A DNA stretch of 63,714 bases, filler included, from Collodictyon triciliatum (GCA_043381765.1; 6 parts of 5 records of this genome joined end to end with filler, not necessarily neighbours in it), one strand, 5' to 3'; shown: positions 1-63,689, counted from the whole stretch's first letter. Notes: a model not told the origin generated them from the sequence alone. Numbers and translations: made by a program.

Positions 1-1523
1 AGGTCACTCTCAAGTTCCGTCTCACTATGACTGACCGGTACAGTTTGTGCATATTGTGCCAAAGCATGAATATTAGGCCTTAAAGATGGCGTATAAACAG
101 ACGGATTACTACTGATATTGGGATTTGCAAAAATACTGCTAATTTCTGGGCTTACGTTATATTTTACAATATCACTACCCGAACCTTGCGGCCATTCCTG
201 ATTCCTCTCTTCTTCAAATCTCTCCCGCCTCTGGTTTAACTCATCTTGCGTATTTAGCCATTTATCTACCCCGAGCTGATTCATTCCGCTAATCTTGCCA
301 AGTACATCCTGGTATTCAGATAATCCTTGCTGACCTAAACTATTTAACCGGTTTAAATCATTCATGTCGCTTTTATTTAAACTGCTCATTCTCCCCCGAA
401 GTACATCCTGTAGTAAGTTGTTTCTATTGCCAAAACGACTTTTAGCAATTCTATTTATAGCATCCTCGGTTTGTGATAAATGTGACTGTGACCCATACGT
501 ACCTTTTCGCTCATGATCCATACTGATTCTGGCTTTCTCCGCCTTTAAAAGACGTTTTGTCTCTTGGTCGAGCTTATCTGTTTGCGGATCATAAATTGTA
601 GGTAAATCGCCTATAGCCCGCGAGCCAACATTCTCTCTTCCCATTAACGAGCTATAGAGGTTATCTCTTTCTCCCCTTGAGGAATCATTATAATCATGAC
701 TCAAATCTCCAAGTAAGCGATGCGAGGTCGCTAATTCTTCAGGCACATTAGCAAGCTGCTCACCACTATATCTCGGAGTCGGGCTATTATAAAGATTTAG
801 TCCTTTTTCTAGTACCTTGATGCCGGCCGCTTCACCATAAGGCCCCATGTTATCAGGATTACCACCGCTATTTACTATATTGTATAACGCCTTCATCTTT
901 TGCTTTGGGGCATTTAATTCTTCGTAAAACTTATTCTTATCTGCCGAATTTGCTAGATGTGAGTATATATGCTGCTGATTGCCAAATTGCCCCAGCATAT
1001 TAGTAAGTCCTGCCCTCTTTGCCTTCTCGGCGTTACCTAGTGCATTTAAACTATTGCCAAACCCTGAATTAAATTCAGAATCAAGGCTTGAAGCATCATT
1101 ACTTAAGGCATCTATACCAACACGGGATAAATCAAGACCCTTATTCAGGTTCTTGTCAAACTTATTATAAAAACCGGTTTGTCTACTACCGGTTCTATCT
1201 CCAAACTGTTTTCCCATCAGCTTCCATCCGGTATCGCCTACCCGTCTTTGACCGGATGAGAGTATATCCAGTAAAGAGGTTTTCTGTCCCTCATTAAAAC
1301 CTTGTGGCGTTCTACTTAAAACACCGCTTGCTTCCACAGAATAAGGAGCAGGAGAATTATTAAACTGCTCTTCCAATGCTCGTTTCTTCTGCGTTAAAGC
1401 AGACATCGGAACACTAGTCTTTCCTCTATATACCGGTACCCCGCTATCTACCATTCGCCCTATATCACGATTAATTAGGCTAAGTGCCTGCTCTCTTAGG
1501 TCATTTAAGTTGTGTGTTTTCAT
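1..1523 (-). CDS. Putative phage virion/DNA-ejection protein, >=507 aa, runs off the window edge (not in ORF track)
   Basis: Manual translation from ATG at 1523 (MKTHNLNDLREQALSLINRD...) stays open to position 1. It starts 1 nt after the stop of the 1525-3027 gene and is helical and G/N/Q/S-rich, like podophage ejection proteins. The function is inferred from context. Confidence 0.5.
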   Translation of the reverse strand, partial: MKTHNLNDLREQALSLINRDIGRMVDSGVPVYRGKTSVPMSALTQKKRALEEQFNNSPAPYSVEASGVLSRTPQGFNEGQKTSLLDILSSGQRRVGDTGWKLMGKQFGDRTGSRQTGFYNKFDKNLNKGLDLSRVGIDALSNDASSLDSEFNSGFGNSLNALGNAEKAKRAGLTNMLGQFGNQQHIYSHLANSADKNKFYEELNAPKQKMKALYNIVNSGGNPDNMGPYGEAAGIKVLEKGLNLYNSPTPRYSGEQLANVPEELATSHRLLGDLSHDYNDSSRGERDNLYSSLMGRENVGSRAIGDLPTIYDPQTDKLDQETKRLLKAEKARISMDHERKGTYGSQSHLSQTEDAINRIAKSRFGNRNNLLQDVLRGRMSSLNKSDMNDLNRLNSLGQQGLSEYQDVLGKISGMNQLGVDKWLNTQDELNQRRERFEEERNQEWPQGSGSDIVKYNVSPEISSIFANPNISSNPSVYTPSLRPNIHALAQYAQTVPVSHSETELESD

Positions 1524-1524
1524 C

Positions 1525-3027
1525 TTATCCTCTTAAATAACTCTCTAAAGACTTTACTTTTGGGGGAAGATTTACTTTTCCACCTCTCTTATGTTTGCGG
1601 ATATTTTCTCTGAAAACATCAAGCTTGCGTGCTCCAGCTGCATTATTACCATCCCCTAAATCAGATACTGTCGAGGCGTCAAATACATATTCGCCGTCGC
1701 TAAGCCTTGCATCAATTAAATCATCCTGCCCGCCGCTATCGCCGCTTAAATAACCTATAGGGCTTAGAGGGTCATAAATTTCTTCCGTCAAATAAGCATA
1801 AGGGTTACGGGCACTCCCGCCGCCTTTCATTCTAAGCGGCCGCCCTTCCTCATCCGTGTACTCAAGCCAGCGACCGGTTCTTGCAAACTCCTCAGGTGAT
1901 ACAACTCGCCTCTGGACAGAACCCATGTTCTTTATATCTTCTTCCAGCTGCTTGTTTTTTCGCTTTTTTTGTAAATCGGCACGTGCAGTCTCAAGTAGCT
2001 CGTCAGCTTCAACCTCGGCAATAGTCTTACGGCTTGCGTTGCGATACCTTCGCTCTTCCTCTGCTATTTTCTCTGGACTTTTTGGCTTCTGCCGACCTGC
2101 ATACTGTGCCGCTACAGTGCCAAGTGTTAGTAAATTCCCTGGCTGAGTTAGATAGTCTTTTGCATTATCACCAAACTTTTCTAAAAAACCCCTATTATCT
2201 ACATAAGGATAACCGGGATATTGCATTTGCGGATATTGTCCATACTGGGGCGGTACTCCTCCCACTCCTTGCGAAAGTGCAGTCGCAGCGCTAAGACCAC
2301 CACTTACATAAGGATTACTTCCTCCAAGCCCAAACAATCCACTACTACCGCTTGAACTCCCCATGCCTAAAGCAGGTAATATCGCATTAGTACTGCCATA
2401 ATTGCTAAGACTAGAGCCAAGAGCTGTGCTACCTAACTTACTTGCTCCCCATCCAAGTCCTGAAGCAATAGAAGGAAGAGCTGCCCCCATACCTGCTCCT
2501 TTTAAAGCTCCACTTAAAGCACTCTTGCCTCTTGCTGCGTGTTGTGCTCCTTGACCAATAGCGCCGCCAATAATACCGCCTATTCCGGGCGCAATCATAT
2601 TACCGATAACTGCTCCCGCTCCACCCCCTATTACACTTCTTATTGCTTTCCATGGTTTTTTCCAAAAACTGTACTCACGAAGACCCGTATCAGGGTTTAT
2701 CGTCCCGCTTCCTCCTAGACTTTTTAATATATGAGCTTCAATAGGATTAATATGGGCAAGCTCAGTATCGCCATTCCTTCCGTGTCTTCTAATCAGATCG
2801 GCAAGCCTAGGTAAATCTTCTTCTTTAACCGAACCTCCTTCTTTAAAAGCATACTGCGCTCCCGTAGTATCGTAAGGATTACTGTAAGACATATAAGGAT
2901 CACCATACCCAGCGTCTTCATAGCGAGGATCAGGCATCTGATTATCGCCATCAGAAGCTAAGTTATAAGGATCGGAGTTGTTATAAGGATAGTTGTAGGT
3001 ATTTAAATATGGATCATAATTTTGCAT
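1525..3027 (-). CDS. Phage virion DNA-transfer/pilot-like protein (500 aa)
   Basis: Motifs 'EGGSV...GRNGDTELAHINPIEA...GGSGTINPDTGLREY', a Gly/Ala-rich hydrophobic middle and C-terminal 'GGQDDLIDARLSDGEYVFDA...G' resemble Caudoviricetes ejection/tape-measure-type proteins. The N-terminus is Y/N/P/D-rich. Confidence 0.6.
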   Translation of the reverse strand: MQNYDPYLNTYNYPYNNSDPYNLASDGDNQMPDPRYEDAGYGDPYMSYSNPYDTTGAQYAFKEGGSVKEEDLPRLADLIRRHGRNGDTELAHINPIEAHILKSLGGSGTINPDTGLREYSFWKKPWKAIRSVIGGGAGAVIGNMIAPGIGGIIGGAIGQGAQHAARGKSALSGALKGAGMGAALPSIASGLGWGASKLGSTALGSSLSNYGSTNAILPALGMGSSSGSSGLFGLGGSNPYVSGGLSAATALSQGVGGVPPQYGQYPQMQYPGYPYVDNRGFLEKFGDNAKDYLTQPGNLLTLGTVAAQYAGRQKPKSPEKIAEEERRYRNASRKTIAEVEADELLETARADLQKKRKNKQLEEDIKNMGSVQRRVVSPEEFARTGRWLEYTDEEGRPLRMKGGGSARNPYAYLTEEIYDPLSPIGYLSGDSGGQDDLIDARLSDGEYVFDASTVSDLGDGNNAAGARKLDVFRENIRKHKRGGKVNLPPKVKSLESYLRG

Positions 3028-3104
3028 TTTTGCCTCTAGTTATAACAAAAATAAAAGCTTTATTTTTATCATAGCAGAAACAATCTTAATCCATGTTTTT
3101 TCGT

Positions 3105-3138
3105 AAAAACAAAAAAGGAGCTAAAAAACTTAGCCCCT
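3105..3138 (-). terminator. Rho-independent terminator downstream of bet
   Basis: Minus strand reads AGGGGCTAA-GTTTT-TTAGCTCCT followed by a U-run. Confidence 0.55.
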
Positions 3139-3221
3139 AAAAACAGAAAAAACAATGAGTAATTGATCGTGTGTTCACTTTAACATATTTAAACAAGCAA
3201 TTCTAGGTGTATTTTCTAAAC

Positions 3222-3596
3222 TTACGCTGCCTCCATATCTTGTGAATAGTTATACTGCTCGTTAATATATTTTATACAAGCCAATTGCCTTTCTTCCCCT
3301 AAATCGGCAATACTTTCAACACCAGCTTTGCTACACCACTTATTTATTATCTCGCTTGATACATTATGCAGTTTAATAAGTTCTATTAATTCGGCTAGAG
3401 TTTCACTCGGCTCTAGGTTTTTGACCTCTTCTTCCTGATGAGATAAAACAGAGTCAAGCTTGCTACTTATGCTAGCAGATTTTGGTGTGATATTTTTAAC
3501 TTCCATCTCAAGATCGTTAAAATTCTTCCCCTCCATTTCCTCAGCTGTCGGATGCTGACTTACTATCTCAGGAAAAGCCTTACGCAAGGCTTGTGC
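3222..3596 (-). CDS. bet: Phage single-strand annealing protein Bet/RecT, C-terminal part (5' end lost in gap)
   Basis: The frame reads AQALRKAFPE next to the gap, the conserved end-of-core motif of Red-beta/RecT proteins, followed by an acidic tail. Confidence 0.7.
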   Translation of the reverse strand, partial: AQALRKAFPEIVSQHPTAEEMEGKNFNDLEMEVKNITPKSASISSKLDSVLSHQEEEVKNLEPSETLAELIELIKLHNVSSEIINKWCSKAGVESIADLGEERQLACIKYINEQYNYSQDMEAA

Positions 3597-3952
3597 NNNN
3601 NNNNNNNNNNNNNNNNNNNNNNNNNNNNNNNNNNNNNNNNNNNNNNNNNNNNNNNNNNNNNNNNNNNNNNNNNNNNNNNNNNNNNNNNNNNNNNNNNNNN
3701 NNNNNNNNNNNNNNNNNNNNNNNNNNNNNNNNNNNNNNNNNNNNNNNNNNNNNNNNNNNNNNNNNNNNNNNNNNNNNNNNNNNNNNNNNNNNNNNNNNNN
3801 NNNNNNNNNNNNNNNNNNNNNNNNNNNNNNNNNNNNNNNNNNNNNNNNNNNNNNNNNNNNNNNNNNNNNNNNNNNNNNNNNNNNNNNNNNNNNNNNNNNN
3901 NNNNNNNNNNNNNNNNNNNNNNNNNNNNNNNNNNNNNNNNNNNNNNNNNNNN
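3597..3952. other. Assembly gap (N-run)
   Basis: 356 N. Confidence 0.99.
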
Positions 3953-4028
3953 TATAATGGTACCCAAAAACTGGACTACTAAAATTGGAAAATGAGATAT
4001 AATTTCATAACAAGAAAATGGAAATTAT

Positions 4029-4328
4029 ATGTCTAAAAAAGCTAAGCAATATAGTGCAACAGAAAAGACAAAAATTGTTTTAGAAGCGATAAAAGCTGAA
4101 ATGACAATAGCACAAATAAGCAGTAAATATGGGGTTCATGCGACTCAAATACAAGCATGGAAAAAAAGAGGTATAGAAAATTTAGTTAGTGGCTTCCAAG
4201 TTAAGCCTACGACAAAAGATCCAGACAATCAAGAATTGATCAAACAATTATATGAACAAATAGGACAGTTAAGCGTTGAGCGTGACTGGCTGAAAAAAAA
4301 ATCTACAATGTTTGGACTTGGAAACTAG
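4029..4328 (+). CDS. IS3 transposase OrfA (HTH)
   Basis: YSATEKTKIVLEA...YGVHATQIQAWKK...LSVERDWLKKK. Confidence 0.9.
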   Translation: MSKKAKQYSATEKTKIVLEAIKAEMTIAQISSKYGVHATQIQAWKKRGIENLVSGFQVKPTTKDPDNQELIKQLYEQIGQLSVERDWLKKKSTMFGLGN

Positions 4329-5154
4329 GAAAAGTATGATTGATAATCATTGTAGGAATTTAGCTATTAGCAGGCAATGCGATCTACTTTTAATAAATAA
4401 ATCTACTTATTATTACAAGGCAAAAGGGCTAACTACAAGAGACTTAGAAATAATGAAGGTAATTGATGAAATCTATACAGATCATCCGTATTTTGGGGCA
4501 AGAAGAATGTCTAAGCATTTAGTACCTTTTGGAATTGTTATAGGTCGCAAAGCGGTAAGTCGATATTACAGAATCATGGCGATTGAAGCTGTTTATCCTA
4601 AAATGAATTTAAGTAAGCGCAACCAAGCTCATAAGATATATCCCTATCTTTTAAAAGGAGTTGAGATTACCAAGATAAATCAGGTGTGGAGTACCGATAT
4701 AACTTATATTAGGATGTCCCAAGGATTTGTCTATTTAGTAGCCATCATTGATTGGTTTAGTCGTTATATTCTGAGCTGGAAGGTGTCTATTAGTTTAGAT
4801 AGTGATTTTTGTATTGAAGCACTAGAAGAAGCTATAGAACAGCACGGTCAACCGGAGATTTTTAATACGGATCAAGGTTCTCAATTTACGTCAAATAATT
4901 TTATAGGCGCACTTGCTAAGCGTGAAATCAAGATCAGCATGGACGGTAAGGGAAGAGCTTTGGATAATATATTTATTGAAAGATTTTGGCGTTCATTAAA
5001 ACAAGAAAAAATATATTTGATAATTTTAAATACTGTAAAGGAGGCAAAAAATGCTATAACAGATTACATAACTTTTTATAATCAGAAAAGAATGCACCAA
5101 TCTTTGGATTATTTAACTCCAGAGCAGGTGTATTTAACAAAAATTATTGGCTAA
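4312..5154 (+). CDS. IS3 transposase OrfB (rve/DDE)
   Basis: NQVWSTDITYI, IFNTDQGSQFTS and DNIFIERFWRSLKQE DDE motifs. Confidence 0.95.
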   Translation: MDLETRKSMIDNHCRNLAISRQCDLLLINKSTYYYKAKGLTTRDLEIMKVIDEIYTDHPYFGARRMSKHLVPFGIVIGRKAVSRYYRIMAIEAVYPKMNLSKRNQAHKIYPYLLKGVEITKINQVWSTDITYIRMSQGFVYLVAIIDWFSRYILSWKVSISLDSDFCIEALEEAIEQHGQPEIFNTDQGSQFTSNNFIGALAKREIKISMDGKGRALDNIFIERFWRSLKQEKIYLIILNTVKEAKNAITDYITFYNQKRMHQSLDYLTPEQVYLTKIIG

Positions 5155-5215
5155 AATTATAACGAAAATTATATCTCTAAATTTTGATTTTTTAGTCTAG
5201 ACAAATTGGGCCACC

Positions 5216-6019
5216 TCATACTGCCTCGCAAGCTTTAAATACTTCTCTAGTAGTAATAACCTCATGACGATGTGGCCATAATTCGCCTTTTACTCGCATT
5301 TCACCATAGTAGAAGGGATTCTGGATCATCCTATGTAAAACTGTCTTATTTATGTAATGACCATTTTTACTACGTAAACCCCATCTTTTCGCTTTTAATA
5401 CCATTTCAGATAAAGTATATGCTCCTGTTGCGTACTCTTCAAATATTTTTGTGATTAAAGGGGCCTTGATGGGATCAACTATAATTAGTCCCCTACCGCG
5501 TTCATCTCTTTTATTCAAATAACCAAGTGGTGCACTACCATACCATTCCCCGTGAACCTCAACTTTCTGTTTAAAACTTTTTTTGACATTTTCACTTAAG
5601 AGATCAGTATGACATTTGGCAATAACAACTCCCATGCCCCACATCATTAATTCATGGGCAGTAGATTCCTGATGTATAACGTAACTTTCACTATTAAAAT
5701 GTAATTCCAGTTTACCTTTTCTAACTAATTCATCAAGTAAGGGAGTTTCTTTCTGGCTTCTTTGAATGCGATCTACCTTATCGGCAACGAATGCTATAGG
5801 CTCACGATACTGTTTTATAAATTTGATAATTTCCATAAATTCCTTTCGATCACCCTTAGTTGAAGATTCAACTATTTTAAACTTCTTTAAAATATGCAAT
5901 CCTTTTCGATCACAATATTTTTCCAATCTTTCAGTTTGTACTTCAAGAGAATAGCCTTCCTGTTGATCTTTAGAGGAAACTCTGGATAAAATAACTGCTT
6001 TTATTGCTTTCTCTGCCAT
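5216..6019 (-). pseudogene. Large serine recombinase/integrase, C-terminally truncated by IS3
   Basis: Resolvase catalytic motif SRVSSKDQ, DKVDR and a recombinase domain (APLGY...NPFYYG). The stop codon (5216-5218) is supplied by the IS3 end, before the usual zinc-ribbon/coiled-coil region. Confidence 0.85.
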
Positions 6020-21567: not shown

Positions 21568-22608
21568 ATGGACCTAAAAAAAAGGCAGATAGCGATTTTA
21601 ATAATAGCTATTTTCATACCTGTTTCAGGAAATGCCAGTCTGACATGCAAAGGCCGGTTTGTCAATCCGATAACTGATGTTTGCTGGAGCTGTTTATTAC
21701 CTATTTCAATTGGAACTCCTCCAACCGGTGTAGAGATCGGCAAGGGCTCAAGTCCCAAGAAACGAGATACCAGAAACCCTAAAAGTCCCGTCTGTGTCTG
21801 CAGCAAAGGAACTCCTCCGATACCCATACCCGGTATTTCCATAGGCTTCTGGGAACCTGTACGCCTTGTAGATATTACAAGAACACCGTACTGCATGGTA
21901 AATCTTGGCGGAGTCATGCTTGGCTCTGATATGCGCAAGGTCAGCAGTTACAATAGAAGCTATGGGAATAGAACTGCGCATAACAGTTTTTATCATGTTC
22001 ATTATTACATATATCCGCTTATTTACTGGCTTGAACTGATTACCGATTTTGCTTGCCTTGAGGAATCGACTTTTGATGTTGCTTACATGAGTGAATATGA
22101 CGTTACCTGGAATGATGAAAAACTACAGAGTCTGCTTAATCCGGAAAGTATACTATTTGGCAATATGCTAGCTCAGGCAGCGTGCGGCCTGGACTGCGGT
22201 GCGGCTACGTTTAATTTACCTGATGATAGCATGTTCTGGTGTAGTGGGTGCTGGGGCAACATGTATCCGTTTTCAGGTGCCAACGCGGATCATATCGGCG
22301 GAGCCGGGAATAGTTCATTACTTACTACCAGGATACTAGCCAAGATGCACCGGATAGGTCTTGCTGCAGAAACTTCAACATCGGACGGCTCAATAAATGG
22401 AGCAATCTGTCGCAAATTCAGGGCTCCAAAAATTAAAAAGAGCCAATACAAATTACAGATGGTAAATCCGGTAACAACCTCTGCAGGTATAGGATGTTGG
22501 CCGATTGGATTATCCGACATGTTATATAGCAGTTTTAAGGAATACCCGTATGACGGGCAAGATTGGGGGTACTTGATATGGCGCAAAAAAAATTGTTGCT
22601 GGTTTTAG
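21568..22608 (+). CDS. traU: TraU
   Basis: C.GRFVNPITDVCWSCLLPISIG, GFWEPVRLV, FYHVHYY.YP, IWRKKNCC. Confidence 0.95.
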   Translation: MDLKKRQIAILIIAIFIPVSGNASLTCKGRFVNPITDVCWSCLLPISIGTPPTGVEIGKGSSPKKRDTRNPKSPVCVCSKGTPPIPIPGISIGFWEPVRLVDITRTPYCMVNLGGVMLGSDMRKVSSYNRSYGNRTAHNSFYHVHYYIYPLIYWLELITDFACLEESTFDVAYMSEYDVTWNDEKLQSLLNPESILFGNMLAQAACGLDCGAATFNLPDDSMFWCSGCWGNMYPFSGANADHIGGAGNSSLLTTRILAKMHRIGLAAETSTSDGSINGAICRKFRAPKIKKSQYKLQMVNPVTTSAGIGCWPIGLSDMLYSSFKEYPYDGQDWGYLIWRKKNCCWF

Positions 22609-23270
22609 CGGCACTAATTCCCATGTTTCTTATGGCAAACAGTAATGTAGAAGCCGGGAAGGGGCTATTAGCAGAGCACGTAGCGGAAGCAGATAGAGAC
22701 CGGCTTAAAGGTCTTATAGAGGAATCACGGGAAATTGTAATGAGTACTATCGCTGAAAAATACAGAGAGTTGCTTATGCTACGGCAGCAGCGGGATGGAG
22801 TAATAGAGAATAAGGATTTAACGGGCTCAGGTGGGCCAGGTAGAGATTACAGAGACTCGATTTTGCTAAAAGTTTTTATCAGTAGCAGTATGAGCCCTGA
22901 GATACTTAAAACTTATGTTAGGCAAGCAAAGCGCTACGGAGGGGTTCTGGTATTTAACGGCTTGCCTGGTAACTCCTGGGTGAAGCTGAATAAGACGGTA
23001 ACGGAAATAGTAGGTGATGAAGAAGGAGTAGGGATACAGATTGATCCTGAGGAATTTGACAGATTCAACATTAAAACGGTACCTGCCTTTGTACTCTTTA
23101 AAGAAGATAACAGGGTCACCTACACATCGAAGGAAGCGGAAGAAAATAAGGTTATCTATGACAAGGTAACAGGAAATATCGGTATAGAAGCTGCATTACG
23201 TTTATTTGCCGAAAAAGGGGAGTTAAGCCTCGAAGCACAAACAAAACTGGAGAATACAAGGGATGAATAA
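22578..23270 (+). CDS. trbC: F-type TrbC
   Basis: VFISSSM...L, IQIDP..F..FNI..VPAFV, D.V.GNI...AL. Confidence 0.9.
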   Translation: MAQKKLLLVLAALIPMFLMANSNVEAGKGLLAEHVAEADRDRLKGLIEESREIVMSTIAEKYRELLMLRQQRDGVIENKDLTGSGGPGRDYRDSILLKVFISSSMSPEILKTYVRQAKRYGGVLVFNGLPGNSWVKLNKTVTEIVGDEEGVGIQIDPEEFDRFNIKTVPAFVLFKEDNRVTYTSKEAEENKVIYDKVTGNIGIEAALRLFAEKGELSLEAQTKLENTRDE

Positions 23271-24363
23271 GGTTAGAGTTAAATTAACAATAGTTTTTTG
23301 TATCAGGTTATTGGAAGCATCTGCTTATGGAGCTTACCGGGATCCGATTGCAAAAACCAATATTAATCCCAAAACGGATTTATTTGAAAAGGAGATAGAG
23401 GATTACGGTACTTTCCGGGATCATATGGGCTCTTTAAGGGAGCAGGCGGTTAACGGTATAGGTTCTCCAGATAATCTTGAATTGATATCGGATAAAACGG
23501 ACGATGAAATTAAGGCAGCTGCAAGTGATTTAAGTACCATCAGGGCAACCGATTTGCAGGTAAAGGGTCAGGAAGAGGTACTAAGAACAGGCATAATGGA
23601 GGAGTTGCATGTTGACTATACAAATCCGTTAAATACCGAGTATCAAAAAGATGCGTCCCGTATTGCAGATGCTTCAGGAAATCTACTTAAAAAACTGACT
23701 GAATTATTCAAGGAGTTTGGAATAGATTGCAAAGCCGTCAAGGGTAACATGGTAATTGAACCCGAATATTATATCGATATTAAAAAAGAGCAGATAAAAG
23801 ATACCGTTTATACCAAGGCAATATGTGAAGAGCCAAGGAACAGGTACAAATGTTATGACGTGCTAACTGCAAGTTGCAAACGAAAGGGAGCGGTAGGGGA
23901 GCTGAAATATGTATTTCTAGCAGTTGACGGTTTTGTAAATCAGTTGTTAGAGGGTACACGCAGGGTTGGTTATGATGACAGAGCGGTATTAGCGCAACTC
24001 GAAGGCCGTTTAGCTGATATGACTCCCTATTCCTCGGTAATTAAGGGCATTATCGGCAAAATATTTAAAAAAACCAACATTACAGTGCCGTCCTATCGTT
24101 TAGAAATAACACCAAAACGTATCTACCGTGGATACGAAGCCTTACGAAATCATTTTGCTTTGAGAAAGCTTATACAGATGTCGGTACAGGCAAGAACCGG
24201 AGAATGGTTTGATAATTGGATAGAGGCTATCCAGGCAAGTTCCATGAGTTGCCGGTACTCCTTAATTACTTATAACGGTCGGTTTATTCCGCTGTTCTAC
24301 TATGACGAGGGTTGTGTGGAATGGTCTGATGAATGGGATGAGGTATGCGGATTAGAATCATGA
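23263..24363 (+). CDS. traN: TraN N-terminal/tip module, copy 1 (366 aa)
   Basis: Sits at the traN locus, with a signal peptide, Cys pattern C..(CEEPRN.Y.C...L...C) and terminal CVEW.DEW.EVC. Confidence 0.7.
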   Translation: MNKVRVKLTIVFCIRLLEASAYGAYRDPIAKTNINPKTDLFEKEIEDYGTFRDHMGSLREQAVNGIGSPDNLELISDKTDDEIKAAASDLSTIRATDLQVKGQEEVLRTGIMEELHVDYTNPLNTEYQKDASRIADASGNLLKKLTELFKEFGIDCKAVKGNMVIEPEYYIDIKKEQIKDTVYTKAICEEPRNRYKCYDVLTASCKRKGAVGELKYVFLAVDGFVNQLLEGTRRVGYDDRAVLAQLEGRLADMTPYSSVIKGIIGKIFKKTNITVPSYRLEITPKRIYRGYEALRNHFALRKLIQMSVQARTGEWFDNWIEAIQASSMSCRYSLITYNGRFIPLFYYDEGCVEWSDEWDEVCGLES

Positions 24364-24529
24364 AAATATTAAATCCGGTAATGATGATTTGGATGTTCTC
24401 AAATAACAGTTTAAGCGATTTAGATGAGCCGGATAACGGTTTTAAGAATCAGGCTTTCCTTAAGGCATTTGCCGGTAACGGTATGGGCCGGATTTTATCT
24501 GATGAAACCGATAAGAACAAAATCGGAGA

Positions 24530-25582
24530 ATGGCGCAAATGATTAAGATTAGAGTTAAATTAACAATAGTTTTGTGTATCAGGTTATTGGAAGTACCTGC
24601 TTATGGAACTTACCGGGATCCGATTGCAAAAACCAATATTAATCCCAAAACGGATTTATTTGAAAAGGAGATAGAGGATTACGGTACTTTCCGGGATCAT
24701 ATGGGCTCTTTAAGGGAGCAGGCGGCCCAGGGTATCGGCGCTCCGGGCAACCTTGAACTGATATCGGATAAAACGGACGATGAAATCAAGGCAGCTGCAA
24801 GTAATTTAAGTACCATAAGGGCAACCGATTTGGAGGTAAATGGTCAGGAAGAGGTACTAAGAACGGGCATAATGGAGGAGTTACATGTTGATTATACGGA
24901 TTCGTTAATAGCCGGACATAAAAAAGATGCATCCCGTATTGCTGATAGCTCAGGCGAGCTACTTAAAAAACTGACTGAATTATTCAAGGAGTTTGGAATA
25001 GATTGCCGGACCGTCAAAGGAAACAAGGTAATTGAACCTGAGTATTATATTGATGTTAAAAAGGAGCAGGTAAAGGACACCGTTTATACCAGGGCTATGT
25101 GTGAAGAACCAAGGAACAAATATAATTGCCAAGACGTTCTAACTACAAAGTGCAAACGAAGGGGAGCGGTGGGGGGCTTGAAATACGTTGTACGTATGAC
25201 TTGGTATCATGCTGTTGGTGGTTTGGGCTTTTATGGTAGAACCAAACTTGGTTATGAGTATGATTTCTATCTCTCAAGAGACGGTGAAATTGATCTATCG
25301 CCTTTTTTTCCGGAAATTAAACGCATAATGAATAAAAGGCCTTTCTCATTATCACTGAGTGCTGCCTTTGAAACTATTGACGTAGATAAAATTATTCTGC
25401 CGCCTCAGCGTTATATTCCATACAAGATAACCTTGCAGCAAAGAACCGGCGAGTGGATCGAGAAGGATTTCACATTATTACCTCTTTTCCAAGGAGGTTT
25501 GCCTTTTCCTTTGTTCTACTACGATGAGGGTTGTGTGGAGTGGGTTGATGAATGGGATGAGGTATGCGGGTTAGAATCATGA
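24530..25582 (+). CDS. traN: TraN N-terminal/tip module, copy 2 (350 aa)
   Basis: First ~215 aa and last ~25 aa are highly similar to copy 1; the central segment differs. Confidence 0.7.
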   Translation: MAQMIKIRVKLTIVLCIRLLEVPAYGTYRDPIAKTNINPKTDLFEKEIEDYGTFRDHMGSLREQAAQGIGAPGNLELISDKTDDEIKAAASNLSTIRATDLEVNGQEEVLRTGIMEELHVDYTDSLIAGHKKDASRIADSSGELLKKLTELFKEFGIDCRTVKGNKVIEPEYYIDVKKEQVKDTVYTRAMCEEPRNKYNCQDVLTTKCKRRGAVGGLKYVVRMTWYHAVGGLGFYGRTKLGYEYDFYLSRDGEIDLSPFFPEIKRIMNKRPFSLSLSAAFETIDVDKIILPPQRYIPYKITLQQRTGEWIEKDFTLLPLFQGGLPFPLFYYDEGCVEWVDEWDEVCGLES

Positions 25583-25708
25583 AAATATTAAAATCGGTAA
25601 TGATAATTCGGATAACGGTTTTAAGAATCAGGTTTTTCTTAAGGCATTTGTCGGTAACGGTATGGGCAGGATTTTACCTGATGAAACCGATAAGAACAAA
25701 ATCGGAGA

Positions 25709-26779
25709 ATGGCGCAAATGATTAAGATTAGAGTTAAATTAACAATAGTTTTTTGTATCCGGTTATTGGAAGCGTCTGCTTATGGAGCTTACCGGGATCC
25801 GATTGCAAAAACCAATATTAATCCGAAAACGGATTTATTTGAGAAGGAGATAGAGGATTACGGTACTTTCGAGAAAGCTATGGACGCTTTAAAGGAGCAG
25901 GCAGTTAACGGTATTACTTCTTCCGGCAACCTTGAATTGATAACGGATAAAACGGACGATGAAATTAAAGCCGCAGCAGGTGATTTAAGTACCATCAAGG
26001 CAACGGATTTAGAGGCAAGGGGAAGGGAAGAGGTACTAAGAACGGGTATGACGGAGCTACATGTTGATTATATAAATCCGTTAAATACACAGCATCAAAA
26101 AGATGCGGTCAGTATTGCTGATAGCTCAGGCGAGCTGCTTGGAAAAGTACTTGTGCTATTTAAGGAATTTGGAATAGATTGCCGGGCTGCTCAGGGGAAC
26201 AAGGTAATTGAACCCGAGTATCATATCGAGATTAAAAAGGAGCAGATAAAAGACACTGTTTATACCAAGACGATGTGTGAAGAGCCGCGAAACAAATATA
26301 ACTGCCGGGATATTCTATCGATGCGCTGTAGTAAACGTGGGATTAGGTGGGGATTGTGGCAAAGCCGTCAGATAGTTATCTCAGGTAGCGAGTTATTTCG
26401 CTCAGGAAAAACCGTATTCTAGGTAGATCATACCGGAAGAAGCTGTTTTGAATACAAACTCTCAGTGGGGCCACGAACTATTGGCGGTTTCTTCAGCGCT
26501 CCTCGTACTATCCCGCCTAATTCCTATCATGTTGCACTGATGAGAGAGTTTCTAGTTACTAAACACCCCGGGAGCACTCTTGATAATATCAGTACCGAGA
26601 TGAGTTCATGGTGGAGTGGCGGTCTGTTTTCGGTAGACGGTTGGTATTACGGCGGTAGGAGGCTCGGTCATAAAGATTATGGATGGAGAAGTTATACGGT
26701 AAATTACCAATATAGGGACGGTTATCCTGTATGTGAGCAGTGGTCAGAAGATTGGAGCGAGACATGTATACTCCAATAA
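25709..26779 (+). pseudogene. traN: TraN N-terminal/tip module, copy 3, with one in-frame TAG at 26420-26422
   Basis: ORFs 25709-26422 and 26465-26779 are in the same frame (…VF*VDHTGRSCFEYKLSVGPR…), and the read-through ends YQYRDGYPVCEQWSEDWSETC. Confidence 0.75.
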
Positions 26780-27870
26780 AAAAACTGAATTTTATTTTGG
26801 AAATCTCTACCTGCTGGCTAATCCTGATCTTTGGCAACATGGAAGTTGCAATTGCAGGCAAAAGATTCATCTCAAGTCATCCTTGTAGTGATACGGGTAG
26901 GGTTTGCGTAAGCGGCGGCGGAACACGCAACATAGACGGCTTTGACGTATACCGTGATTGCTGGCAGTGGTCATATACTAAAACCTGTAATTATCCAAGT
27001 AAGAATAACTGCCGGAGTTATAGCGGGTGCTATTTTGTAGCAAACGGTAACTGCCTGCTTTTTGATAGTCAGGATAATTGCGTTAATCAGGAGCGGGAAT
27101 TTTCCTGTAAAGCCTGGGAGCCCGGAGTAATTGAAAACAAAACCGTCAGGTATGATTTAACACACAAAGACGGTCAGGAAGGACTGATCTGTAAGGGTAT
27201 TCCCTGTATGGACGGGAACTGTATAGATAAAAGTTATTTAACAAACGGTGAAATGATGGATTCAATATCGAAGCTTTATGCTTTTAGCAAGATGAAGCCT
27301 GATAGGGATGGAAATTTCAGTTTATTTCAGGGGTCGGGCTTACACTGCTCTAAGAAAATGGCCGAATATACGAATTGCTGCCGAATAAACATGAAGGGCT
27401 GGGGAAAAGAATTCGGGGCAAGGTGTAATAAGGATGAACAACTGCTTGCAAGAAATAGGTCAAAGAATTTATGTGTTTATGTAGGTAAGGAAAAAATAAA
27501 GTCGCTAGGGGTAACCACCGTTGTAAAACATCATTTCTGCTGCTTTGGCAATATGCTCGATAAAGTGGTGCAGGTACAAGGAAGAAAACAGCTTGGGTTA
27601 AACTTCGGTAGCGGAGGATCGCCAAACTGTCGTGGACTGACATTAACGGAAATGCAGAGGATAGATTGGGAACTGGTGGATTTTACGGAGTTCATTGAGG
27701 ATTTCAAAGGAAAGTTTTTTGGTAAATATCAGTCACCTAATCCTGATGAGATTGCAGGAAGAGTGAATAGCTCAATGCCCAGCATTAGAAAAGGCAATGA
27801 TGATCCATTAGATCCGCCGAGTAATATGACCGGCTGGAGTAGCAATATACCTGATGAGCTGGAGGAGTAA
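26764..27870 (+). CDS. traN: TraN C-terminal Cys-rich module
   Basis: GGTRNIDGFDVYRDCW, LFQGSGLHC, NCC...GWG, LCVYVG, FCCF...L...Q.QGRKQLG..FG....PNCRGLT..E.Q.IDW..VDF.EF; has its own signal-like N-terminus. Confidence 0.92.
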   Translation: MYTPIKKLNFILEISTCWLILIFGNMEVAIAGKRFISSHPCSDTGRVCVSGGGTRNIDGFDVYRDCWQWSYTKTCNYPSKNNCRSYSGCYFVANGNCLLFDSQDNCVNQEREFSCKAWEPGVIENKTVRYDLTHKDGQEGLICKGIPCMDGNCIDKSYLTNGEMMDSISKLYAFSKMKPDRDGNFSLFQGSGLHCSKKMAEYTNCCRINMKGWGKEFGARCNKDEQLLARNRSKNLCVYVGKEKIKSLGVTTVVKHHFCCFGNMLDKVVQVQGRKQLGLNFGSGGSPNCRGLTLTEMQRIDWELVDFTEFIEDFKGKFFGKYQSPNPDEIAGRVNSSMPSIRKGNDDPLDPPSNMTGWSSNIPDELEE

Positions 27871-27880
27871 GGGGGACGTG

Positions 27881-28705
27881 ATGAGAAAAAGAACCTGCAA
27901 TATTCCGATGTTTTTACTGATTGGCTTAATGGTATTGCCCTCTAGGGCTATAGCTGAGCCGGGGTTTTTTGAGCAACGTTACCGTGGCTGGTTATGGTTT
28001 GAAGAAAAGGAAGAAGGATCTAATTCAAAACCCTATTCCGGTAGCAAGAGTAATGAAGTGCCTGATGAAGAAATTACGGTAGAAGAGGCAAAGGGCGAAG
28101 TTGAAAGCATAATAAAAGAGCTGGAAGATTTGCGTTATGTCTATTTGGCCAGGCCAAATTACAAGACGCAAAAAGCCTATCGGGATAAACTCGGTGAAAT
28201 CATGGATAGGGGCATAAGGATGCAGGAATTATGGGACGAGCAGAACTTTATCGAACCGGAATATCGTGATCTGGTTAATTCCCCGGAAAATGTATTTGCC
28301 GTAAAACTGAATAGAAAAATCAAGGCGGAGGCCGAGAAGGAAATAATCAAGCAATTTGCAAGAGATTATGAACTGGTATTTTTCTATCGTAAATCTTGCC
28401 CACGGTCGAGTGAATTTGAACCTGTACTGAAATCCTTTGGAGATACGCACGGGATTAAAATAGAAGCCGTTAGTGTAGACGGCTCAGAATCAGAATATTT
28501 TAGGGGGAGTAGCACAGTTAGTGGGGACCTGATTAATAAACTCGGTATATCGGCAACACCGACGGTAATAGCCATAAGAAAGGATGCAAGAAAAGCGTTT
28601 GAGCTGATTCGGGGATTTGTCACTTTATCGGAGCTGGAGGAAAATACTGTCAAAGCCTGGCATATTATTGAAGAAAAAGGCATTAATGTTGGAGTGGGTA
28701 GATGA
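27881..28705 (+). CDS. traF: TraF (thioredoxin-like)
   Basis: RGWLWFEE, LVFFYRKSCP, AVSVDG, LGISATPT, G...L.EL. Confidence 0.9.
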   Translation: MRKRTCNIPMFLLIGLMVLPSRAIAEPGFFEQRYRGWLWFEEKEEGSNSKPYSGSKSNEVPDEEITVEEAKGEVESIIKELEDLRYVYLARPNYKTQKAYRDKLGEIMDRGIRMQELWDEQNFIEPEYRDLVNSPENVFAVKLNRKIKAEAEKEIIKQFARDYELVFFYRKSCPRSSEFEPVLKSFGDTHGIKIEAVSVDGSESEYFRGSSTVSGDLINKLGISATPTVIAIRKDARKAFELIRGFVTLSELEENTVKAWHIIEEKGINVGVGR

Positions 28706-34185: not shown

Positions 34186-35319
34186 ATGATGATAGATAAG
34201 GTACAAAAGACAAAGAAAGTGAATATGAAACAGGAAAAAGCCGGTGAAGCTGGCTTAGAATTAACTACTGATATAGCTAGTATAGATAATATTTATCAAC
34301 GCATAGCAAAATATTTGCAAACAGTTCAATATACAATATTACAGACTATTAATACAGAAATGGTATTGGTTTATTGTAAAATTGGAAAAGAAATCATTGA
34401 GCATGAACAGTATGGTGAATCAAGAGCAGCTTATGGAGAAGAATTAATCCGTAAACTTTCAGAAAAACTTACCAAAGAGTTTGGTAAGGGTTATTCTGTT
34501 TCGAATTTACGTAATATGAGGCAATTTTATCTAAGTTATCAGGATGAGATTCACCAGACGGCGTCTGGTGAATTGTTGTTTATTCCAAAAGTATCATGGT
34601 CAAAGTACTGTTTATTGACGCAGGTAAAAAATAGGGAAGCAAGAGCATTTTATGAGCAGGAAGCATTAAATAACAAATGGTCAGTAAGAGAATTAGACAG
34701 ACAAATAGGTAGTTTGCTTTACGAAAGACTGGCAAAAAGCAAGGATAAACAAGGGTTAATGAATCTTAGCATTAAGGGGCAAGAAATTGAGAAACCGGAA
34801 GATGCCATAAAAGATCCAATCATTTTAGAGTTTCTTAATATTCCGGAAGCTTATCAAATGGTCGAAAGTAAACTGGAGGAAGCTTTAATAACAAATCTCC
34901 AGCATTTTTTACTTGAGCTTGGAAAGGGGTTTGCTTTTGTAGCAAGGCAAAAGCGCATTACTTTAGACGGTAATAATTTTTATGCAGATCTGGTTTTTTA
35001 TCACACTATCCTTAAATGTTATATAATTACTGATATCAAGACCCATAAGCTTAATCACGGAGATCTTGGGCAGATACAATTTTATGTTAATTACTTTGAT
35101 GAGCACATAGCTACAGAAGGTGATAATCCAACAATTGGTCTTGTTCTGTGTACAGATAAAAGTGATGCCATGGTTAAATATACTTTGGGAACGCAGAATA
35201 CTCAGATTTTTGCTTCCAAATATCAATTTCATTTACCTACTGAAGCTGAATTAGCAGCGGAACTTAAAAAAGAAATCAAGGACATAAAATTGCGGATGAA
35301 AATCCCGAATTTAGAATAA
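34186..35319 (+). CDS. yhcG: YhcG/DUF1016 PD-(D/E)XK nuclease-domain protein
   Basis: FGKGYSVSNLRNMRQFY, WSVRELDRQI, IKDP.ILEFL, FLLELGKGFAFVARQ, GQ.QFYVNY, DNPTIGLVLC. Confidence 0.92.
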   Translation: MMIDKVQKTKKVNMKQEKAGEAGLELTTDIASIDNIYQRIAKYLQTVQYTILQTINTEMVLVYCKIGKEIIEHEQYGESRAAYGEELIRKLSEKLTKEFGKGYSVSNLRNMRQFYLSYQDEIHQTASGELLFIPKVSWSKYCLLTQVKNREARAFYEQEALNNKWSVRELDRQIGSLLYERLAKSKDKQGLMNLSIKGQEIEKPEDAIKDPIILEFLNIPEAYQMVESKLEEALITNLQHFLLELGKGFAFVARQKRITLDGNNFYADLVFYHTILKCYIITDIKTHKLNHGDLGQIQFYVNYFDEHIATEGDNPTIGLVLCTDKSDAMVKYTLGTQNTQIFASKYQFHLPTEAELAAELKKEIKDIKLRMKIPNLE

Positions 35320-37201: not shown

Positions 37202-37371
37202 TTTAATTTAAGTACCCGTAATAGTAGTCAAGAAATTTTTATGAGTCAATCATAAACTTTGTGTAAGTTTTNNNNNNNNNNNNNNNNNNNNNNNNNNNNN
37301 NNNNNNNNNNNNNNNTTAATTAATTAANNNNNNNNNNNNNNNNNNNNNNNNNNNNNNNNNNNNNNNNNNNN

Positions 37372-47300: not shown

Positions 47301-47551
47301 TAGAACGAAAAAAGGTGAAGGGCAAGAAAAAAGTGGAGGGTGAGGAGGAGGAAGAGATGGGGGGGGGGGGGGGGGGGGGGGTGTTTTTTTTTTTTTTTTT
47401 TTTTATTTTTTTTTTTTATGGTGTTCTGAATGTCTAAATAACATTTTTTTTNNNNNNNNNNNNNNNNNNNNNNNNNNNNNNNNNNNNNNNNNNNNTTAAT
47501 TAATTAANNNNNNNNNNNNNNNNNNNNNNNNNNNNNNNNNNNNNNNNNNNN

Positions 47552-50626: not shown

Positions 50627-51035
50627 NNNNNNNNNNNNNNNNNNNNNNNNNNNNNNNNNNNNNNNNNNNNNNNNNNNNNNNNNNNNNNNNNNNNNNNNNN
50701 NNNNNNNNNNNNNNNNNNNNNNNNNNNNNNNNNNNNNNNNNNNNNNNNNNNNNNNNNNNNNNNNNNNNNNNNNNNNNNNNNNNNNNNNNNNNNNNNNNNN
50801 NNNNNNNNNNNNNNNNNNNNNNNNNNNNNNNNNNNNNNNNNNNNNNNNNNNNNNNNNNNNNNNNNNNNNNNNNNNNNNNNNNNNNNNNNNNNNNNNNNNN
50901 NNNNNNNNNNNNNNNNNNNNNNNNNNNNNNNNNNNNNNNNNNNNNNNNNNNNNNNNNNNNNNNNNNNNNNNNNNNNNNNNNNNNNNNNNNNNNNNNNNNT
51001 TTTTTTTTATTTCTGCCGATTTTTCCGCCCCCCCT

Positions 51036-56838: not shown

Positions 56839-56939
56839 NNNNNNNNNNNNNNNNNNNNNNNNNNNNNNNNNNNNNNNNNNNNTTAATTAATTAANNNNNN
56901 NNNNNNNNNNNNNNNNNNNNNNNNNNNNNNNNNNNNNNG

Positions 56940-57289: not shown

Positions 57290-60200
57290 CATTATTCATA
57301 AGAAAAGCTTCATGTATTCACCTTTCTCCTTGATTGTGGTTTGGTCATGCTCAATTCTCATCCCCTGATTGGTTTGATTTTTATGAAGAATACGTCTATT
57401 AATCTTCAAACTCCTCTCAGGTTCTTCGATGCTTGCGATTCGATTGTATAGTCGACTCTATTCAAGACTTTGTTACCCTGAATCTTGGCCAACAGTTTAT
57501 TGAACCTCCTACCTTCAATCTTGCCAGCTCTTTCAAAGATGCATCACCAGTCACACCGCTCATCTTCATTCTCTCCGCGGGCGCCGACCCTGCCGCGGAG
57601 TTGTTTAAGTTTGCTGAAGAGATGAGGTTTGGAAAGAAGCTGAATTCGATTTCACTCGGGCAAGGACAAGGTGAGCTCTACGAAGATTCCCATTAGAATA
57701 TTATTCGTTCAAATATTTTTCGATAGAGCCGCAATTCTGAACTCTTTCTTCATAACGTCTATATTATATTCTAACTGATATTGATTGATGCCTAGGTCCC
57801 AAAGCGAAAGAGATGATACACGAAGCTATGGAACACGGGAAGTGGGTAATGCTCCAGAATTGCCATTTAGCATCTTCATGGATGCCAGTCTTGGAGCAAA
57901 TTGTGGATTCGGTGTCGCTTGAAAAAGTACATCGCGATTATCGATTATGGCTGACAAGGTGAGTATATTATTACTTTTGATTATCCATTTCTTCTCCAAT
58001 TATCCTAGAGGTATGCGGTGTGTGTGTGTNNNNNNNNNNNNNNNNNNNNNNNNNNNNNNNNNNNNNNNNNNNNNNNNNNNNNNNNNNNNNNNNNNNNNNN
58101 NNNNNNNNNNNNNNNNNNNNNNNNNNNNNNNNNNNNNNNNNNNNNNNNNNNNNNNNNNNNNNNNNNNNNNNNNNNNNNNNNNNNNNNNNNNNNNNNNNNN
58201 NNNNNNNNNNNNNNNNNNNNNNNNNNNNNNNNNNNNNNNNNNNNNNNNNNNNNNNNNNNNNNNNNNNNNNNNNNNNNNNNNNNNNNNNNNNNNNNNNNNN
58301 NNNNNNNNNTTTTTTTTTTGAAGCAGTCTAACAAATTGTCTATGCAGGAACCTATTCGAGCTTTGATGATAATTTCCTCAATCTGACGAAGAAGACATTT
58401 GTATGGAGAAAGCTGCTCTTCAGCTTATCATTCTTCCACGCCATCATTCTTGAAAGGCGTAAATTTGGTGCCTTAGGTTGGAATATTCCTTACGAATACA
58501 CAACTGGTGATTTGGACATATGCATCCGTCAGCTCCAGGTAATTTAGCAATATTATTCGAAAGTGTCGAAAAAGTAATAGAAACTCTATTAAGGAAAAAG
58601 TGTGATATGATATTTTCTCCAACATGATAGTTACAATTAAAGTGTGTATTTCTATCATGAATGACAGTAATAAAATAAAATAAAAAAACGCGTCAAAAAA
58701 CTCAGATGTTCCTGGATGAATATGAGCAAATTCCATACAAAGTCTTGAAAGAGCTTACCGGACACATAAATTATGGAGGACGTGTCACAGATGACCTTGA
58801 CCGGAGAACCTTGATGAATTTGTTGGAAAGTCACTACAGTCAGGAAGTCCTGAGTGATGACTTCAAGTTTAGTCCAAGCGGGACTTACATGTCTATCAAC
58901 GCTGAGACTAGAAAAGGATACTTGGTAAGCAATTTATGTTATTTTTTTCGGAGCAGATTAATGACGTGTTGTTTCAATCCATCGTAGCAACTACCAAACG
59001 TTATGTAAACCTCTTCTTTTCCTTCTTTTTCACTCTGTGTAGGATTATATTCGTGGCCTTCCCATCAACGATTCTCCTGAGGTCTTTGGACTGCATGAAA
59101 ATGCAAATATCACTTTCGCACAGAACGAAACACGGGTTATATTCGAGGACCTCCTCGCTCTTCAACCAAAGGTTCCGCCCCTAGAAACACACCTTATATG
59201 ATGCTTATATACATACCTAATCTTTAAAATGTCATCGCTTTAGTGCGGATTCTGTTCCTTAAATGGTGTTTGTTTATTTAATTTCCTTCTCTGATAGACT
59301 TCATCTGGCTCTGGACGCAATCGTGATGTCGTCATCAAAGAAACTGCTACGGACATTCTCCAGCGCCTCCCAAACAAATTATCAGAGGAAGAGTCCATTC
59401 GTCGTTACCCCATCTCTCACTTGGAGTCTATGAATACAGTGCTGACTCAAGAGATTATTCGATATAATAAGTATGTATCGATTCACATATACTGATATTC
59501 TTGGAAAATGTAGAGGAGTAACTGAACTGTTTTTTGAAGCACTTATGTCAGTTTTTATGCTTTGCCTCTTTTTTCCATTTTTTTATTTTTATTTTTTTTT
59601 ACTAATCATATGTACAGGCAATCCTAATTCTTCGAATTGAACATAATAGAATCCTTGTAATAATTCGTCGAAGCTTGAATGATTTGCTGAAAGCCCTGCG
59701 CGGCCTTGTAGTGATGTCTCAGGCTCTTGAACAAATGTCCACATCTCTTTACGACAATCAAGTTCCCAAAATGTGGTCAGAAAAGTAAGGCTCAAGTTGC
59801 GTCTACCCTCTGGGCAACTAAACAGTTGAAGTGTTATTAACTTATGTTCCTTTTGATTTTTTTTTTTTTTTTTGTTTGCCTCATTCGTGTTGCTCGTACA
59901 ATTACAAATGACGACATTAAAACAAAGGACGTTAATTCTAGGGCATATCCATCTTTGAAGCCTTTGTCATCATGGGTTGTGGACCTCAAAGAGCGATATG
60001 CATTTATCGAGAACTGGTACAACAAAGGTGTTCCATCAGTATTCTGGATATCTGGATTTTACTTCCCACAGGCTTTCCTCACAGGTTCGTAGGTTGATTT
60101 AGAAATCATCCATCTTACCTGCATATGTGCCGGTGGTTCATTTAGCTGCGACTCCTTTTTTTTCTTTTCCTATTTCGTAATTAAGTATTTCTTGATTATC

Positions 60201-61312: not shown

Positions 61313-63689
<2,377 letters not shown>

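Follow-up and report, generated by a model that had tools for sequence, protein, structure and literature searches.

A Putative Split TraN with a Tandem Array of N-Terminal Modules Carrying Unlike Candidate Tips in an F-Type Conjugative Element

Introduction

In F-like TraN, recipient specificity is determined by a variable tip, and swapping of the tip reverses it (PMC9246713; PMC13104618; both papers are cited throughout from excerpts). In those excerpts, F-like TraN is described as having an N-terminal domain, mostly of beta structure, to which a beta-sandwich tip is linked, and a C-terminal domain that folds back (Low et al., PMC9246713); TraNV of Acinetobacter baumannii plasmids carries two tips in one polypeptide of 891 amino acids (aa), and two to three TraN copies were found in 2.5% of plasmids (He et al. 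2026, PMC13104618). Papers on the Rickettsiales amplified genetic element (RAGE) and on Torix Rickettsia, as far as their excerpts go, merely list traN among genes. Here, we analyzed a stretch of DNA of 63,714 nucleotides (nt), referred to as the window, from an assembly filed under Collodictyon triciliatum (GCA_043381765.1), in which the place of traN in an F-type tra operon is taken by three tandem paralogous genes with different middle segments (modules W1, W2 and W3, collectively TraN-N), followed by one gene for the C-terminal part of TraN (traN-C).

To our knowledge, the TraN tip is the one donor-encoded factor known to determine the species that can be mating partners of an F-type element, and we know of tips being studied so far only as one, and once as two, per protein on enterobacterial and Acinetobacter plasmids. 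Alternative adhesin segments are familiar from the R64/IncI1 shufflon, in which alternative C-terminal segments of PilV set which recipients are mated and one tip at a time is presented by site-specific inversion (Rci acting on sfx repeats). Megaira is an endosymbiont of algae and ciliates, and we know of hardly any observation of conjugation in Rickettsiales. We consider it rather likely that the element in the window is an F-type conjugative element of the RAGE kind from a relative of Candidatus Megaera/Megaira polyxenophila, and that its TraN is made in two parts of which TraN-N has been tandemly amplified. A sequence-only reading of the window had presented such an array as apparently undescribed, and our literature search, which did not extend to supplementary tables that may hold short TraN entries, likewise found neither a split TraN nor arrays of modules described in print.

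Organization of the Split TraN Locus

The genes in the traN position of the window lie between trbC and traF of the F-type tra operon, which runs on the + strand and in which Pfam searches identified traE, traK, traB, traC, traU, trbC, traF, traH, traG and the gene of a TraD-type coupling protein (Table 1). A single common C-terminal traN gene follows the array, as the sequence-only reading had noted. The product of this gene covers the PF06986 profile in full but matches TIGR02750 only at positions 291-571 of 572, with 189.4 bits against an equivalog cut-off of 422.45, and it therefore corresponds to a TraN without the N-terminal half. TraN-C has its own N-terminal hydrophobic signal-like segment, and the ATG of traN-C falls among the final codons of W3, in the -1 frame; a start-stop overlap between module and traN-C is present both in the window and in the genome of Candidatus Megaera polyxenophila (G001, chromosome and plasmid). 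Thus, the N-terminal part with the tip and the C-terminal domain are encoded on separate open reading frames (ORFs) in the window and not in one polypeptide. A programmed frameshift from W3 into TraN-C was considered and rejected, since an X XXY YYZ site is absent from the overlap at 26737-26779 and the A-run comes only after the W3 stop.

The same arrangement was found widely. Among 47 sources, 29 have a module directly followed by traN-C and 16 end at the contig or locus end, with one of the remaining two showing only traN-C at the threshold used and the other being an odd fusion. The order in five enterobacterial F-like plasmids is trbC-traN-traF, with a traN product of 602-651 aa, and the modules occupy the place of the 5' half of this traN. 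A direct link to TraN came from a 603-aa single-chain Rickettsia TraN, found in an order-wide genome search, in which PF06986 lies at 302-543, directly after a module-like region: positions 221-321 of the module profile aligned with its residues 165-276 (hhalign probability (Prob) 98.5%, E 2.5e-15), and when 17 aligned Rickettsia TraN were used instead, Prob was 97.9% and E 5e-13 over residues 165-281. Judged by this homology, the variable segment of the module is the counterpart of the middle (tip) region of TraN. Because the variable region and the strands after it correspond to the middle of TraN, the gene pair is, by sequence criteria, a split TraN, and the split is the rule for the module family.

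Some loci depart from this arrangement. In locus L080, a single ORF (199-1143) joins the end of the module scaffold (hidden Markov model positions 127-181) directly to TraN-C positions 190-313, apparently through a deletion-fusion that removed the tip. Between two modules of each of L070, L074 and L079 (about 4744-4968), a 75-aa fragment matches the first ~50 positions of TraN-C, which indicates that the duplicated unit there included the start of traN-C.

The three modules are paralogs in direct repeat, which share a scaffold of ~205 aa and each end in a CxxWxxxWxExC motif (Table 1), much as the sequence-only reading had described them. The repeats form two three-copy families, one of 300 nt, whose other copies match the reference copy at 93% and 89%, and one of 270 nt (83% and 79%); they are spaced 1276 and 1179/1176 nt apart, and such repetition is far beyond chance. 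We delimited the tips, designated alpha, beta and gamma in W1, W2 and W3, from the invariant Cys205 to Cys351 (W1 numbering), and the bounds obtained are close to those given in the earlier reading. That reading had also called the three middles largely unrelated, which holds for tip 3, as neither of the other tips resembles it, but is too strong for tips 1 and 2, which are 28% identical over their full length (E 5e-8). The end of each spacer between modules is a copy of the last ~45 nt of trbC, GGAG included, and this GGAG stands about 8 nt before the ATG that follows each spacer; the likely true starts of W2 and W3 are therefore 24539 and 25718 (MIKIRVKL, GGAG upstream), rather than the points at which their ORFs open.

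Module Family and Predicted Structure

None of the three modules matched Pfam or NCBIfam, and an NCBIfam search with five modules at E<=10 returned one irrelevant weak match; a search of the ESM Atlas gave no usable match. When a five-module profile was searched against 1.84 billion proteins, the family comprised 195 representative clusters at E<=1e-3, of which the best 150 have lengths of 69-460 aa, mostly 320-450 aa, with none long enough for a fusion with TraN-C. Ten clusters were looked up, and in the one that carries names (24 members) all six named members are called 'hypothetical protein'; in RefSeq, the module on the Megaira plasmid is likewise a 'hypothetical protein' beside 'traN'. 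Across 127 members (W1 numbering), Cys 156, 188, 197 and 205 are invariant and C351, W354, W358, E360 and C362 nearly so, and the stretch between C205 and C351 is variable family-wide, with lengths of 100-235 aa and 15 BLAST clusters. In the alignment of single-chain Rickettsia TraN, no Cys corresponds to the CxxWxxxWxExC motif, and the alignment continues into KIKEFREKGEYWQ. Possibly peculiar to the split form, the motif is a candidate docking or disulfide element.

The intact gamma module of G001 locus B, modeled with 74 aligned sequences, reached a mean pLDDT (predicted local distance difference test) of 84.3, with a helical domain at 43-154, a low-confidence linker at 162-183 and a beta-rich domain at 198-356. 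Residues 200-357 of this model have pLDDT 90-98, and long paired strands at 198-215 and 339-356 bracket the variable insert, a predicted topology that is compatible with a tip. The W1 model has the same overall plan at a mean pLDDT of 71.5. Foldseek found no match of the W1 model in the PDB at E<=0.001, and a wide VIA-align search with the gamma model found no chain at Z>=5, the top rows being generic coiled coils or small beta domains. Searched by sequence, TraN-C met no TraN entry in the PDB and only three irrelevant matches (E 0.4-0.55).

Tip Exchange and Array Variation

The array is not unique to this element: tandem arrays of two to three modules are present in 16 of 34 metagenome loci (this and the fractions below describe this sample only). 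In all eight arrays measured, identity between modules is 71-98% in the scaffold and 17-30% in the tip; L072, which would have been the ninth, was left out, as its second module has no end motif. With one to three modules per element, the traN loci vary in both copy number and tips, for which a comparison had been proposed. The combinations observed were alpha-beta-gamma, alpha-gamma (L049, L050), beta-gamma (L055) and delta-gamma, together with delta'-alpha plus one more, delta'-gamma and gamma-other. Judging from their sequences, the two-module forms look like the three-module array minus one unit, lost via recombination between the conserved flanks.

Tips have also moved between scaffolds. 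In a sliding comparison of the module of the Megaira plasmid with W3, nucleotide identity is 40-55% in the scaffold, rises to 93-100% in the tip and falls again inside traN-C. Between the chromosomal and plasmid copies of the gamma tip, synonymous divergence (dS) is 0.15, whereas scaffold dS is saturated and non-synonymous divergence (dN) is 0.49. In L078 and L070, gamma tips that match those of Megaira at 96-98% occur on scaffolds with 32-35% identity to W1, in L052 an alpha tip with 99% identity lies on a 68% scaffold, and near-identical tips were found on scaffolds only 31-39% identical. Such near-identical tips on very different scaffolds imply that tips are exchanged by recombination. On a FastTree scaffold tree of 127 members (representatives clustered at 50% identity, tip clusters defined by single linkage), the tip classes are placed almost at random: 42 changes are required, where shuffling gave a mean of 44.6 and a count as low in 24 of 200 shuffles. 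When only branches with strong support are considered, at least 17 changes are still needed for the largest tip class and at least 14 for the next, and three tip classes occur within a single, fully supported clade made up of the five Megaira-type scaffolds. For the sequences at hand, these comparisons demonstrate that copies are gained and lost and that homologous recombination in the conserved flanking sequence carries tips from one diverged scaffold to another. The recombination between flanks that the sequence-only reading had put forward is thereby visible in two-module variants without copy 1 or copy 2 and in tips that sit on differing scaffolds.

Alternative Explanations

Several observations weigh against the reading of a split TraN whose amplified N-terminal modules are maintained for their tips, among them signs of decay. 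W3 appears as two ORF pieces, 25709-26422 and 26465-26779, which are one frame broken by a TAG; the matching codon is TGG in all 25 related locus rows that cover it, so that the TAG is private to this assembly and may be either a real mutation or a base error. As the window stands, W3 is knocked out by this nonsense codon, and full-length products would come from the alpha and beta modules alone. In G001, an insertion sequence (IS) cuts the middle copy of locus A (A2), and neither traN-C in locus A nor trbC in locus B is uninterrupted; frameshifts occur in both L018 modules and in one module of L048. Furthermore, the metagenome loci were found by Megaira-like peptide patterns and include several near-duplicates, and only 27 of the 124 inner branches of the scaffold tree are strongly supported.

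The decay, together with a copy number of one to three that differs between elements as expected from unequal crossing-over, would suit extra modules that are neutral by-products of unequal recombination among RAGE copies, now decaying, in an array with no function beyond that of a single TraN-N. We regard this as unlikely. In 14 of 15 scaffold paralog pairs, dN/dS is 0.15-0.29 at dS 0.2-0.89 (the fifteenth pair has only four differences), and scaffolds that have diverged to dS 0.35-0.89 keep dN/dS at 0.17-0.29, which points to purifying selection on the scaffolds. Each copy has kept its own Shine-Dalgarno sequence and signal peptide, the invariant Cys residues and the end motif. In addition, arrays recur on scaffold lineages 31-42% identical to W1 with unlike tips in eight of eight cases, whereas simple duplication would give like tips.

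No terminator-like site lies on the + strand in the spacers, and terminator-like and promoter-like counts in the region are at or below chance. Given the retained Shine-Dalgarno sequences and signal peptides and the lack of terminators between the modules, the copies appear to be complete genes and not silent cassettes, and are most likely made together. Of the two possibilities raised by the sequence-only reading, co-expression or exchange, the latter is thus visible as recombination and the former is most likely from these signals. RNA-library contigs (X15) cover all three tips and the W2-W3 junction, but, as such libraries can hold DNA, this is a hint only.

Other points that count against the split-TraN reading concern the scaffold and the tip model. 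The scaffold is predicted to be helical, unlike the beta N-terminal domain described in the excerpts of Low et al. (PMC9246713), and its weak similarity to the Rickettsia TraN N-terminus in local hhalign is limited to an LSxIxAxDLxxxG-like stretch (Prob 4.8%). The alpha tip was modeled with low confidence (pLDDT 38-76). The module profile gave Prob 1.2% against the N-half of five enterobacterial TraN; in a control, however, Rickettsia and enterobacterial TraN themselves align only over the C-terminal ~280 residues (Prob 100%), so that a mismatch with the enterobacterial N-half is expected even for a true TraN and cannot discriminate. The earlier claim that the modules are TraN-related is accordingly upheld by synteny and by homology to the center of Rickettsia TraN, and not by homology to the N-half of the F/R100/pKpQIL type, for which none was detected in this uninformative comparison.

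These scaffold properties could mean that the modules are free-standing secreted or surface proteins, such as adhesins that act on the eukaryotic host or on other partners, or exclusion proteins, which share only a domain with TraN and act independently of TraN-C. The absence of detectable similarity between the scaffold and any TraN N-terminus tested, a helical domain with a disordered linker unlike the published F-like TraN (in the excerpts cited), the separate gene in all of the best 150 of 195 family clusters and the lack of the end motif in single-chain Rickettsia TraN would all suit such proteins. We nevertheless find this quite doubtful, and less credible than neutral decay, because traN-C directly follows in all 29 sources that continue past the last module, with start and stop overlapping in the window and in G001; because the position of the modules is exactly that of the traN 5' half; because their variable region is homologous to the TraN center (Prob 98%); and because TraN-C alone is without an N-terminal or tip domain.

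Occurrence of the Array in Other Assemblies

The arrangement in the window recurs in independent assemblies. G001 has three such loci: locus A with the same alpha-beta-gamma order and an intact gamma module, locus B with a delta module, then gamma and an intact traN-C, and a 173-kb plasmid with a single module followed by traN-C. The complete chromosome (L016, locus A) is collinear with the window at 96-97% by blastn except for one IS insertion; an independent metagenome contig of 15.7 kb (L048) is collinear at 94.9% over 3872 nt (window 22600-26463), and L047 covers trbC-W1-W2 at 97.3%. Among Logan contigs, W1 tip into spacer 1 is covered by X2 record 19 and X6 record 28, W2 to W3 is bridged by X1 record 4 (DNA, 24989-25824, one difference) and by the RNA-library contig X15 record 13 (25450-25842), and W3 to traN-C by X1 record 6 and X6 record 31. 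Contigs in X1 and X6 also join 25592 to 26956/26958, skipping about 1364 nt, with only 25-30 nt on one side; this joint is possibly a repeat artefact.

The sequence-only reading had named concatenation of different strains' alleles by the assembler as the case that would overturn it, and although the draft assembly joins contigs by N linkers and the module scaffolds have identical stretches of about 100 nt in common, such an assembly artefact is for practical purposes excluded by the same order in a closed chromosome and in L048, by L047, by contigs from other studies that bridge the remaining junctions and by the absence of Ns within 11142-37271.

Genomic Context

The window is not one molecule: several contigs are joined by N44-TTAATTAATTAA-N44 linkers with stops in six frames, so that inference across the joints, for example on the borders of the element, is unsafe. 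The array lies within the single contig 11142-37271, in which the tra operon has a guanine-plus-cytosine (GC) content of ~42% against 31-36% in the flanks. An ORF with an autotransporter beta-domain (11803-12771) at the left end of this contig and a YhcG/DUF1016 PD-(D/E)XK nuclease gene (34186-35319), located between an SLT transglycosylase gene and that of the TraD-like coupling protein, are probable cargo. In 1-3596, two ORFs of ~500 aa on the - strand (3-1523 and 1525-3027; GC 42% over the first 2 kb) had no Pfam match and no DNA match in G001. An IS element at 3953-5220 carries an rve-type transposase gene (4312-5154) and has more than 20 copies in G001 at about 91% identity. The stretch 37372-63714 is rich in microsatellites, namely (AACCAAT)15, (GTAAGA)18, (AGAAG)21, T41-42 runs and (TAGTTCTTT)36, and has few N-free open frames above about 170 aa; it contained no tRNA and no Rfam match, and the 19.7 kb of it searched in G001 gave only a 30-nt match. 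These pieces look eukaryotic and are possibly host DNA binned with the bacterium.

Table 1. Coordinates of the split traN locus, its neighbors and the joints of the window.
Feature	Coordinates	Strand	Remarks
Linkers	11042-11141, 37272-37371, 47452-47551, 56839-56938, 60833-60932		
Further N runs	3597-3952, 50627-50999, 58030-58309, 63052-63609		
trbC	22563-23270	+	PF09673 3.6e-26; stop overlaps start of W1
Module W1 (alpha tip)	23263-24363	+	Intact, 366 aa; 99% identical to G001 copy A1
W1 signal peptide	residues ~1-21		
W1 scaffold	to Cys205 (nt 23877)		
W1 tip	23878-24312		
W1 end motif	24313-24348		CVEWSDEWDEVC
Spacer 1	24364-24538	+	Homologs: spacer 2, G001 locus B spacer
Module W2 (beta tip)	24539-25582	+	Intact; ORF opens at 24530 (350 aa from there)
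W2 tip	25154-25531		
W2 end motif	25532-25567		CVEWVDEWDEVC
Spacer 2	25583-25717	+	Aligns with spacer 1
Module W3 (gamma tip)	25718-26779	+	ORF opens at 25709; in-frame TAG at 26420-26422
W3 tip	26330-26731		
W3 end motif	26732-26767		CEQWSEDWSETC
traN-C	26764-27870	+	368 aa; PF06986 6.9e-46, profile positions 1-240 of 240
traF	27854-28705	+	PF13728 7.2e-31; downstream of traN-C, as in F-like operons

Proposed Mechanism and Significance

We propose that TraN-N would be a secreted protein of ~350 aa, in which a flexible linker connects a helical N-terminal domain to a beta-rich domain that is bracketed by Cys and hypervariable in its middle, and that TraN-C, equipped with a signal sequence of its own, would provide the conserved PF06986 domain. 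The TraN-N gene would have been amplified in tandem to three paralogs with one scaffold, one end motif and three tips, which would share one operon and be co-transcribed, and homologous recombination in the shared flanks would add, remove or replace tips. Each TraN-N would pair with the single TraN-C at the donor surface, each tip would recognize a different recipient surface receptor, and the array would in this way widen or hedge the range of recipients. The pairing is a prediction, on which a complex prediction of TraN-C 32-368 with W1 22-366, run with no alignments or controls, has no bearing either way (score 0.00), and recognition of recipient receptors by the tips is suggested by analogy with F-like TraN. 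As regards a location in the outer membrane, N-terminal signal-like segments are the one feature that the sequences display. A two-component stabilizer, in which co-expressed, combinatorial and detachable TraN-N receptor-binding subunits are mounted on one TraN-C base while tip cassettes circulate among unrelated elements, is put forward only tentatively. If it exists, an integrative conjugative element of intracellular bacteria could carry and re-assort several recipient specificities at once, and the two-component logic would extend to an unnamed family of at least 195 protein clusters.

A split TraN with a separately encoded, arrayed tip subunit would show a modular route to recipient range, of which tip exchange between elements would be part. 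It would also offer a testable handle on RAGE-type movement among Rickettsiales that share eukaryotic hosts, and assign a likely role to an unnamed 'hypothetical protein' family annotated beside a 'short' traN.

Comparison with Known Systems

Like the shufflon, the Megaira array belongs to a conjugative element with several alternative adhesin or tip segments; unlike those of the shufflon, the Megaira segments all stand in direct repeat, each within a complete gene. A shufflon-like inversion system was considered and rejected, since the repeats are direct and the inverted repeats around the array amount to only five short, imperfect pairs (70-85% complementary). By Pfam, no recombinase was found among the ORFs submitted from 11142-37271, several smaller ORFs being left out, and the sole resolvase-type gene in the window (5216-6019) belongs to another of the joined contigs.

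The likeness to TraNV, as far as the excerpts describe it, is in having more than one tip per TraN base, which suggests multi-receptor recognition; in Megaira, each tip has its own protein, the product of a separate paralogous gene, and elements differ in how many tips they carry and in which combination. F-like TraN (alpha to delta; R100-1/pSLT, pKpQIL, F), described in the excerpts as a mating-pair stabilizer of the outer membrane encoded between trbC and traF (PMC9246713), has this position in common with the Megaira genes, as well as a Cys-rich C-terminal PF06986 domain shared with TraN-C (Rickettsia and enterobacterial C-halves, hhalign Prob 100%) and a hypervariable middle between conserved flanks, which in the F-like protein sets recipient specificity. 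The Megaira form differs in being encoded by two genes, with the tip-bearing half tandemly amplified, and in its scaffold, which is predicted to be helical and has no detectable homology to the N-half; in addition, it stays below the equivalog cut-off. The single-chain TraN of Rickettsia RAGEs (590-605 aa) comes from the same bacterial family and type of element and has the same C-terminal domain, and its center (165-281) is homologous to the modules' variable region. Rickettsia TraN is fused, without CxxWxxxWxExC at the junction, and present as a single copy in the genomes seen, whereas the Megaira form is split and arrayed.

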